A DNA stretch of 32,000 nucleotides, taken from assembly GCF_000765475.1 (NCBI RefSeq), contig NZ_JRHO01000002.1:99374-131373 (forward strand), given 5' to 3'. Source of the stretch: Methanococcoides methylutens (lineage in GTDB: Archaea > Halobacteriota > Methanosarcinia > Methanosarcinales > Methanosarcinaceae). The notes beneath the pieces are model-generated. The model did not search any database, was not told the DNA's origin, and saw only the letters and a list, made by a program, of their open reading frames with translations. Made by a program: the position numbers and the translations under genes. Below are positions 18,009-19,160 of this stretch, piece after piece (within the stretch, counting starts at the first letter, position 1; each line of letters begins with the position of its first letter).

Positions 18009-19160
18009 TTATTTTTCCTCTACTTTCACAAAACGTTTCCCCATAAGGTTTAACTTAAATTTTCTGATGGTTTCAGGAGGTATAATTTCACCATTTGGAC
18101 TCTTAAAATATAAAGCATTTAAAGGGCATTGGACGATGCAAGCACCGCATTGAACACATTGATCTGCCCTAGGCATTGTTGCAATATGTCGCTTTCTGTC
18201 TACCTCAAAGCAATTCCTCGGACAGATCTCCTCACAAAAACCAACACCTTTACACTTATCCTTATCAAGGATAACTTTTAGCAATCTATCATCCTGAAAC
18301 CCACCTTTGTAGACTGGTGTGCTACCCATTAGATCAATGCTTAGGATGAGAACAACAATGAATGAAATAAAACCCCAGAATAAAATAAATCTCCACGAGA
18401 AATTTCCAGATAACACTACATAAATAGCAAGAGCAACCATTAGAATGGTCCATATAATCAGTTGAAGGCTTCCACGCCCAAAATCAAAGAAAATAAATCC
18501 AATTTTTTTCCCCTCAGTTTTTAAAAAACGGCTATAAACCGGAAATGATATAAAAATTAAGAATGATATGATCCAAACCAGGAAAACAACAGGAAGAATA
18601 GCCTCACTCCGGAAAATAATCATGATGATAGCCAAGACAGCAGAGATTGGAAATGCCCAGGCAACAGCCATCTCAATACGTTGTTTCCAGGGAAACTCGA
18701 CTTCCCTCATTTTCGGTGTTTTGATGAAATGGTCTTTTAGAAAAAGAGGGAGATCTTTTGCATATACTGGCCCCCATATCACTTCCCATCCTGTTTTTTC
18801 CTTTATGATCTTAGCTTCGACACCTGTGGCCGCAAGTTGGGGCAATATTACATTTCTGTGACCTACTACTTCTTCAATTCCGCTGGTTTTCAGAACTGAA
18901 ATTACGTCATGATTTGTGAAACGGCCACCTGTAGCTGAACACCAGACATTTATTCCTTTGCTATTAGCAACAAGAAGATAAACATCGATTCCTTTTATCG
19001 CCCTTTTTACTCCTTCTACAGTTAGATGATAATTGCAGGTCAGAATAACAGGTGAATTGATATCAGGATCCCCTATCTTAATCAAACCTGTTTGACAGGG
19101 GAAAGGGAAAACTCTCAATAGAGTTTCAATAATGTATATAATGAGGTAATGTAGATTCAT
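18009..19160 (-). CDS. HgcA-HgcB-like fusion: corrinoid-binding CdhD/HgcA-type domain + transmembrane domain + 2x[4Fe-4S] ferredoxin
   Basis: 383 aa: SPVILTCNYHLTVEGVKRAIKGIDVYLLVANSKGINVWCSATGGRFTNHDVISVLKTSGIEEVVGHRNVILPQLAATGVEAKIIKEKTGWEVIWGPVYAKDLPLFL...TPKMREVEF, about 4 TM segments, DLMGSTPVYKGG, then DKCKGVGFCEEICPRNC...CVQCGACIVQCP. Confidence 0.8.
   Translation of the reverse strand: MNLHYLIIYIIETLLRVFPFPCQTGLIKIGDPDINSPVILTCNYHLTVEGVKRAIKGIDVYLLVANSKGINVWCSATGGRFTNHDVISVLKTSGIEEVVGHRNVILPQLAATGVEAKIIKEKTGWEVIWGPVYAKDLPLFLKDHFIKTPKMREVEFPWKQRIEMAVAWAFPISAVLAIIMIIFRSEAILPVVFLVWIISFLIFISFPVYSRFLKTEGKKIGFIFFDFGRGSLQLIIWTILMVALAIYVVLSGNFSWRFILFWGFISFIVVLILSIDLMGSTPVYKGGFQDDRLLKVILDKDKCKGVGFCEEICPRNCFEVDRKRHIATMPRADQCVQCGACIVQCPLNALYFKSPNGEIIPPETIRKFKLNLMGKRFVKVEEK

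Follow-up and report, generated by a model that had tools for sequence, protein, structure and literature searches.

The DNA analysed here (hereafter the window) is a stretch of 32,000 nucleotides from the archaeon Methanococcoides methylutens (assembly GCF_000765475.1, contig NZ_JRHO01000002.1, positions 99,374 to 131,373), and the subject of this work is a two-gene cassette located on its minus strand. The first gene, an hgcAB-like fusion (18009..19160), encodes a protein of 383 amino acids in which the corrinoid domain, whose cap helix reads NVWC, is followed by four transmembrane (TM) helices and a two-cluster ferredoxin. The second, cpaM (19157..19825), lies directly upstream and codes for a class I S-adenosylmethionine (SAM)-dependent methyltransferase of 222 amino acids. 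The fusion gene, its family and the lack of mercury methylation in culture are all already known, and the window contributes no new gene. New here are the presence of CpaM upstream of the fusion gene in 78 out of 80 genome loci encoding close relatives (fetched from Archaea and many bacterial phyla), the occurrence of natural triple fusions, and the lack of any other conserved neighbour in these loci.

The fusion gene and its upstream partner

A reading of the locus made beforehand from the letters alone (hereafter the sequence-only reading) had proposed a single open reading frame (ORF) at 18009-19160. This frame was recovered intact on the minus strand, with 383 codons and a stop, and it contains every peptide quoted in that reading, i.e., GINVWCSATGG, PQLAATGVEAK, GWEVIWGPVYAKDLP, TPKMREVEF, DLMGSTPVYKGG, CKGVGFCEEICPRNC, and the Cys-free tail. 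The domain order of HgcA followed by HgcB, also claimed there, agrees with the Pfam matches (CdhD at residues 19-135, E 3e-18; Fer4 families at residues 295-353), and the AlphaFold2 model, built on 63 family sequences, was of high confidence (mean predicted local distance difference test score (pLDDT) 90.9; predicted TM-score (pTM) 0.88). Along its whole length the product matches, at 100% identity, a protein of 383 amino acids on record from Methanococcoides methylutens, and its homologues fill more than 2000 clusters at 90% identity, other members being 64-86% identical to it. The sequence-only reading had allowed for an assembly join of two genes, which is not the case, as the identical protein is on record and the clusters have a like architecture. 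We give practically no weight to an artefact of this type, be it a mis-assembled two-gene join or a decaying pseudogene: the frame is intact, the identical protein comes from an isolate record, the same length and architecture recur in the > 2000 clusters at 64-86% identity, and the model is highly confident. Nothing was found in its favour, and it was ruled out on the homologue clusters, the family conservation, and the confidence of the model.

Family membership was assessed with curated profile hidden Markov models (HMMs). The protein scored 464.4 bits (cut-off 285, E 3e-139) against NF043039, “HgcAB-like fusion protein”, over profile positions 2-350 of 350, and stayed below the cut-offs of both canonical models, with 170.2 bits for HgcA (NF040863, cut-off 275) and 46.6 bits for HgcB (NF040864, cut-off 99). 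The model for the corrinoid iron-sulfur protein (CFeSP) large (gamma) subunit (NF003195) gave 93 bits, below its cut-off of 306, the match being limited to the C-terminal corrinoid domain (profile positions 321-446 of 450). Two genuine HgcA representatives (P0259 and P0260), which are 31-32% identical to the window protein, reached 367 and 421 bits, respectively, on the HgcA model. The window protein is a full member of the HgcAB-like fusion family (e.g., Pyrococcus furiosus Q8U2U9) and differs from it in nothing material, having in common with it the domain order, the NVWCxxxGG motif, the four TM helices, DLMGSTP, C-x5-C-x3-CP-x2-C, and the tail KLNLMGKR, as well as a neighbouring CpaM.

This upstream partner had been overlooked in the sequence-only reading. 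The ORF at 19157..19825 scored 276 bits (cut-off 180) against NF043040, “corrinoid protein-associated methyltransferase CpaM”, and its stop overlaps the start of the fusion gene by 4 nt (ATGA, 19157-19160), an overlap that suggests translational coupling of the two genes. In 78 of the 80 loci, a CpaM homologue (50-86% identity) is encoded directly upstream and on the same strand, and in the other two the contig ends within 125 bp upstream of the gene; the isolate genome of Kosmotoga pacifica shows the same arrangement with the same 4-nt overlap. This obligate linkage extends to gene fusion, since at least six independent representatives at 50% identity (537-644 amino acids) consist of CpaM, HgcA-like, and ferredoxin parts in a single chain, each part scoring above its own NCBIfam cut-off. 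One such triple fusion (P0189, 589 amino acids) was modelled with AlphaFold2 as one confident body (mean pLDDT 93.4, pTM 0.91), and this prediction implies a defined placement of the methyltransferase on the corrinoid protein. When all ORFs of the 80 loci were clustered, no neighbour besides CpaM proved to be conserved (the runner-up cluster was present in 9 of 80), and in a Pfam census of the 143 immediately flanking proteins no family occurred more than four times (ArsR in 4 of the 80 loci). The same loci were also screened for genes that might hint at the substrate, namely those of the ars, mer, selenium, dehalogenase, B12, and lipid groups, and CpaM alone was conserved.

Domains of the fusion protein and the question of mercury

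The corrinoid-binding domain (residues 19-145; 18726..19106; PF03599) adopts a Rossmann-like fold of the CdhD/CFeSP type, which Foldseek superimposed on the CFeSP large subunit (2ycl, 4c1n, 4djd, 2h9a) with a root-mean-square deviation of 1.5-1.7 Å over approximately 127 residues, at 30-32% identity. A solved HgcAB structure was also looked for with Foldseek and none was found, the top match (9a0b) being a deposited computational model. In comparison with the CFeSP large subunit (AcsC/CdhE; 2h9a, 2ycl, 4djd), with which it shares the C-terminal corrinoid-binding fold, the window protein has no N-terminal [4Fe-4S] domain, TIM barrel, or small subunit, is anchored in the membrane, and carries Cys instead of Thr at the axial position. 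This residue, Cys74, is encoded by the codon at 18939-18941, as had been claimed, and belongs to the cap-helix motif GINVWCSATGG (residues 69-79; 18924..18956). Conservation was followed in a close alignment of the family (A1, 25 members) and in a broader one (A2, 63 members): G69, N71, W73, and C74 are kept in 63 of the 63 members of A2, and the consensus of the cap motif over both sets reads GINVWC[A/S/G][A/S]xGG. Sequence alignment places Cys74 opposite Thr374 of CFeSP (2h9a_A), which lies beneath the cobalt in that protein; Cys93 of HgcA has reportedly been modelled at this same Thr374 position, under the cobalt. On this alignment Cys74 is a putative lower axial ligand of cobalt.

The membrane domain (residues 158-274; 18339..18689) comprises four long helices in the AlphaFold2 model (158-183, 185-204, 231-251, and 256-274), with which hydropathy agrees, so that the estimate of about four TM helices in the sequence-only reading holds. 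Hydropathy and the K/R-rich loops, according to the positive-inside rule, put the TM2-TM3 loop in the cytoplasm, together with both the corrinoid domain and the ferredoxin. The TM2-TM3 loop contains the motif FFDFGRG (residues 224-230; 18471..18491), in which F227 is invariant in A1 and F225, D226, G228, R229, and G230 are each conserved in at least 90% of its members; although the loop is nearly invariant, it is flexible in the model (pLDDT < 50 at residues 220-228). Directly after TM4 follows DLMGSTPVYK (residues 276-285; 18306..18335), with D276, G279, S280, T281, and P282 invariant in A1, and with only D276 and G279 reaching at least 90% across all members of A2. Its GST core is shared with canonical HgcA, which reads LNFTGSTTF at this site, but HgcA has five TM helices, and an additional hydrophobic segment takes the place that the ferredoxin occupies in the fusion protein. 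At the opposite end of the chain, a conserved N-terminal helix (..ETLLR.FP.P in A1) is specific to the family, as are the FFDFGRG loop and DLMGSTP.

In the ferredoxin domain (residues 295-353; 18102..18278), motif 1 is C303-x5-C309-x3-C313-P-x2-C317 and motif 2 is C335-x2-C338-x2-C341-x3-C345-P, with all eight Cys invariant in A1. Most family members have A, V, T, I, or M at the place of the canonical second Cys (Cys II) of motif 1. The matches of this domain to sequences in the Protein Data Bank include 7Fe ferredoxins (1h98, 1bc6, and entries of Azotobacter FdI), with residues 303-353 of the query matched to chain residues 8-57 of 1h98. Like these 7Fe proteins from Azotobacter (FdI), Thermus (1h98), and Bacillus schlegelii (1bc6), the domain shows C...C-x3-C-P-x2-C followed by CxxCxxCxxxCP, with three Cys for the first cluster; it differs from them in residing within a membrane corrinoid protein and in a spacing between Cys I and Cys III of x5 rather than x7. 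Judged by this CxxxCPxxC pattern and by the 7Fe matches, a content of [3Fe-4S] plus [4Fe-4S] is plausible, in which one cluster would be ligated by C303, C309, and C345, and the other by C313, C335, C338, and C341, with C317 as an extra residue.

The chain ends in a conserved tail without Cys (residues 354-383; 18012..18101; ...PPETIRKFKLNLMGKR...), in which K369, L370, N371, G374, and R376 are invariant in A1 and for which the family consensus is P..T.RKFKLNLMGKR; neither the distant fused relatives nor canonical HgcB have this tail. The irregular first cluster and the Cys-free tail noted in the sequence-only reading are thus both present, but they represent the consensus of the family and not a divergence from it. 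A separate fused clade (P0198, P0207, and P0167) has canonical CxxCxxCxxxCP motifs and an additional N-terminal hydrophobic extension of approximately 150-190 amino acids that has no Pfam match. Of these three, all of which were read, P0198 and P0167 have C-terminal tails that are rich in Cys (e.g., ...KGKCSCAYCK and ...DSCACVYCN) and resemble the C-terminus of HgcB. Unlike the family of the window protein, this clade might handle soft metals.

Podar et al. (2015) described the family under the name “fused HgcAB”, and one of its carriers, P. furiosus, made no methylmercury above controls; M. methylutens, with its fused hgcAB, likewise produced none above controls (Gilmour et al. 2018). The fused genes form a well-supported clade that is separate from, and sister to, the non-fused hgcA (Lin et al. 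2023). Capo et al. (2022) recommended that fused sequences be treated with caution and listed six accepted HgcA cap motifs, from which NVWCSATG is absent; canonical HgcA representatives carry GINVWCAAGKG where the window has GINVWCSATGG. The sequence-only reading had called NVWCSATGG a divergent motif, which is correct insofar as it is present and falls outside the accepted HgcA set, but it follows the consensus of a known family and is no new variant. With canonical HgcA plus HgcB, the fusion protein shares a corrinoid domain of the CFeSP type that bears a Cys in its cap helix, a membrane domain followed by the GST motif, and a ferredoxin with two clusters; it differs in being one chain instead of two, in a cap motif that reads GG where HgcA has GK, and in its obligate association with CpaM. 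HgcB carries two CxxCxxCxxxCP motifs, and in the fusion motif 1 has no Cys II, while the C-terminal CC pair and an equivalent of C73 are absent. In HgcB, C73, C94, and C95 are needed for Hg methylation, and none of the three has a counterpart in the window protein. As these residues have no counterpart and two carriers of fused genes made no methylmercury, Hg(II) is unlikely to be the methyl acceptor.

It could be argued that the protein is a genuine one-chain mercury methyltransferase, i.e., a functional HgcAB orthologue that is silent in culture owing to limits of Hg uptake or expression. The common domain set, the conserved cap-helix Cys, the 31-32% identity to canonical HgcA, and the shared GST motif are in line with this, and Podar et al. 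(2015) cautioned that negative whole-cell Hg assays do not exclude catalytic competence. Nevertheless, we consider it very improbable, because the curated cut-offs for HgcA and HgcB are not reached, the cap motif lies outside the accepted ones, the three HgcB Cys are missing, repeated assays of two cultured carriers (this species included) gave no methylmercury, and the fused genes are placed in a separate, well-supported sister clade (Lin et al. 2023). The suggestion of the sequence-only reading that this is an HgcAB-related fusion with another function is supported by the profiles, the cap motif, the missing HgcB Cys, and the negative methylmercury assay of the species.

CpaM and the spread of the cassette

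CpaM of the window is intact and aligns over its full length with its homologues. Its SAM-binding motif I, VLDIGCGSG (residues 46-54; 19664..19690; within Methyltransf_25/11 Pfam matches), has G50 and G52 invariant and V46, L47, D48, C51, and G54 conserved in at least 90% of members; the window has Ser at position 53, where Thr is found in 90% or more of them. A hydropathy peak marks a hydrophobic helix (residues 160-178; 19292..19348), whose counterpart in the model of the triple fusion is a helix of 22 residues (158-179) and which is a possible docking or membrane-contact element. Approximately 45 nt upstream of the cpaM ATG, TATATATTTA (19866..19875, minus strand) reads as a candidate archaeal TATA box and is a possible cpaM promoter element. 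The protein has no exact match in the protein collection (the best one is 96% identical and 216 amino acids long), and the public record for M. methylutens may lack a call for this gene or have it in another form. No mention of CpaM was found in the literature searched. In some loci, one or two extra class I methyltransferase paralogues are located just upstream of cpaM (L081:3184-3849 and 1749-2537 in Kosmotoga pacifica; L006/L008:2634-3311; L023:944-1645).

A pattern scan of 185,579 species-representative genomes retrieved 243 relatives of the fusion protein from both Bacteria and Archaea, i.e., the family is widespread and not confined to the few archaea mentioned in the sequence-only reading. 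Pairwise identity depends little on domain (archaeal-archaeal 66.9%, archaeal-bacterial 62.5%, bacterial-bacterial 61.5%), and archaeal sequences occupy several places in a neighbour-joining tree, in which the taxonomy of metagenome-assembled genomes (MAGs) may be imperfect. Two MAGs of the same study (L006 and L008), one labelled “bacterium” and the other “Hydrothermarchaeota”, have cassettes that are 99% identical; this is probably a binning duplicate, and MAG taxon labels are to be taken with caution. The only other Methanococcoides genome recovered has just window positions 17713-19644 in common (against L001:5133-7064, 90% nucleotide identity), with one breakpoint inside cpaM (around residue 61), the other approximately 300 bp downstream of the fusion gene, and unrelated flanks beyond, and thus the cassette stands in different contexts within one genus. 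In GC content at third codon positions (GC3), the cassette (0.33) matches its immediate neighbours and lies below other parts of the window: values are 0.31-0.33 in the block 16029-22954 (glycosyltransferase, cassette, permeases), which may be a low-GC island, and 0.45-0.53 in the block 7008-13021 (oxidoreductase, GDH, acyl-CoA synthetase). Flanking repeats or insertion sequence elements were sought around the cassette, and only short matches at chance level were found. Taken together, the domain-independent identities, the scattered placement of archaeal sequences, the differing Methanococcoides flanks, and the GC3 values indicate a strongly constrained, horizontally transferred two-gene cassette.

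The closest solved structures of CpaM are generic class I methyltransferases (RebM/AtmM, MitM, PmtA, Coq5, and CmoA) and gave no clue to its specificity. By target-normalised TM-score, the best matches were the lipid and quinone methyltransferases PmtA (0.75) and Coq5 (0.73-0.74), and among generic HMMs the best matches were of the UbiE/MenG type. Such likenesses would fit CpaM being the terminal catalyst on a membrane-soluble substrate (a lipid or a quinone), with the corrinoid/ferredoxin protein supplying methyl-radical or redox chemistry for a demanding methylation in or at the membrane, and so would the conserved hydrophobic helix of CpaM and the strong conservation of the TM domain with its W/F-rich helices and invariant loop. 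The resemblance to PmtA and Coq5 is, however, that of a generic class I fold at 16-25% identity, the cassette moves freely across the two domains although Archaea and Bacteria have different membrane lipids and quinones, and no linked lipid or quinone biosynthesis genes were found among the 80 loci and their 143 flanking proteins. For these reasons we regard this explanation as unlikely.

The remainder of the window offered little further information: the neighbouring genes (glycosyltransferase, amino-acid permeases, 2-oxoacid:ferredoxin oxidoreductase, GDH, acyl-CoA synthetase, and P-type ATPase) were uninformative, and scanning the window for Rfam families and tRNAs gave no hits. In the intergenic region upstream of cpaM, a short zinc-ribbon-like frame (...CKKC...x18...CPNCGC...) occupies 19976-20044 on the minus strand and extends to approximately 20100; it has an ATG only for its last 22 codons and may be degenerate or a small unannotated gene. 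Further upstream, an intact amino-acid permease gene (20275-21576, minus strand, 433 amino acids) is directly preceded by a second, split copy (21589-22954, minus strand), whose N-terminal (22265-22954) and C-terminal (21589-22275) halves are overlapping ORFs. The split copy is probably a frameshifted tandem duplicate; D1 and D3, two short direct repeats, lie at the ends of the duplicated permease gene.

A possible methyl relay

The account of the cassette that we lean towards, with somewhat better than even confidence, is that of a self-contained methyl relay in which CpaM and the HgcAB-like protein would pass a methyl group from SAM through CpaM to a Cys-ligated cobalt and on to an acceptor that is not mercury. 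The ferredoxin domain, with probably one three-Cys cluster of the [3Fe-4S] type and one [4Fe-4S] cluster, would reduce the bound corrinoid to Co(I). CpaM would bind SAM and move its methyl group to Co(I), giving CH3-Co(III) with the Cys74 thiolate as the lower ligand. The methyl group would then be handed to an acceptor, other than Hg(II), with access to the four-helix membrane domain at its cytoplasmic face. The analysis shows membership in the family, the domain architecture and topology, the obligate linkage to and fusion with CpaM, and the lack of the Hg-handling Cys of HgcB; the parts that we infer are the transfer direction from SAM via CpaM to cobalt, the types of cluster, and the acceptor, both that it exists and what it is.

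SAM methylates Co(I) after low-potential reduction also in MetH reactivation and in class B radical-SAM methylases, with which the relay would have a mechanistic analogy only, since CpaM is a plain class I Rossmann methyltransferase, separate or N-terminally fused, and neither a MetH activation domain nor a radical-SAM barrel. MetH uses SAM only for reactivation. The fusion protein could also be a Co(I) reductase or dehalogenase-type enzyme acting on halomethanes or another electrophile, in which CpaM and SAM would serve only, in the manner of MetH reactivation, for the occasional reductive re-methylation and repair of oxidised Co(II). A low-potential ferredoxin in cis with a corrinoid is indeed the cofactor set of reductive dehalogenases, and a preprint from 2026 describes the dechlorination of CCl4 by heterologously expressed canonical HgcAB; this preprint, which has not undergone peer review, deals with canonical HgcAB only, however. 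That CpaM is obligately linked at 1:1, is probably coupled in translation, and has repeatedly become fused covalently suggests a stoichiometric catalytic partner rather than an occasional repair factor, and the Pfam census of flanking proteins contained no dehalogenation-related neighbours, which leaves this alternative, in our view, improbable.

The first half of the methyl relay has a precedent in purified canonical HgcAB, in which SAM methylates Co(I) with Co-S ligation (Zheng 2024, PMC11588087). The same precedent also counts against the relay, as canonical HgcAB accepts SAM without a separate methyltransferase and CpaM therefore need not be the component that methylates cobalt. Several further points weigh in this direction. 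The nearest structures of CpaM are ordinary small-molecule, lipid, or quinone methyltransferases. To our knowledge, no class I methyltransferase of the Rossmann type methylates protein-bound cobalt. The triple-fusion model, being a prediction, may speak to the overall arrangement and not to a SAM pocket facing the corrin, the 3Fe/4Fe assignment is drawn from motif analogy only, and a few family members (e.g., P0050 and P0064) retain the canonical second Cys of motif 1. We found no biochemical study of any family member or of CpaM, and the negative Hg-methylation assays are whole-cell tests, for which the caution of Podar et al. (2015) holds. More tentatively, with a probability clearly short of even, we propose that the cassette represents an uncharacterised type of relay, in which an ordinary class I Rossmann methyltransferase would methylate a Cys-ligated membrane corrinoid, held in the reduced state by the ferredoxin domain of the same protein, that then alkylates a non-mercury electrophile (another metal(loid) or a membrane-soluble compound).

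The value of the finding lies in the evidence on the partner gene. The question of function is sharpened, and made testable in vitro, by the CpaM that obligately accompanies the protein, by the triple fusions found in nature, and by a ferredoxin that is probably of the 7Fe type. Metagenomic surveys of mercury-methylation potential routinely pick up fused hgcAB genes, which are excluded by hand because their function is unassigned. Knowing this function would allow cleaner risk estimates and, since the fused clade is the sister of HgcAB, would shed light on the origin of HgcAB. If the more tentative reading of the relay is true, the module would be a widespread and horizontally mobile sister system, and mercury methylation would have evolved out of it or in parallel with it.

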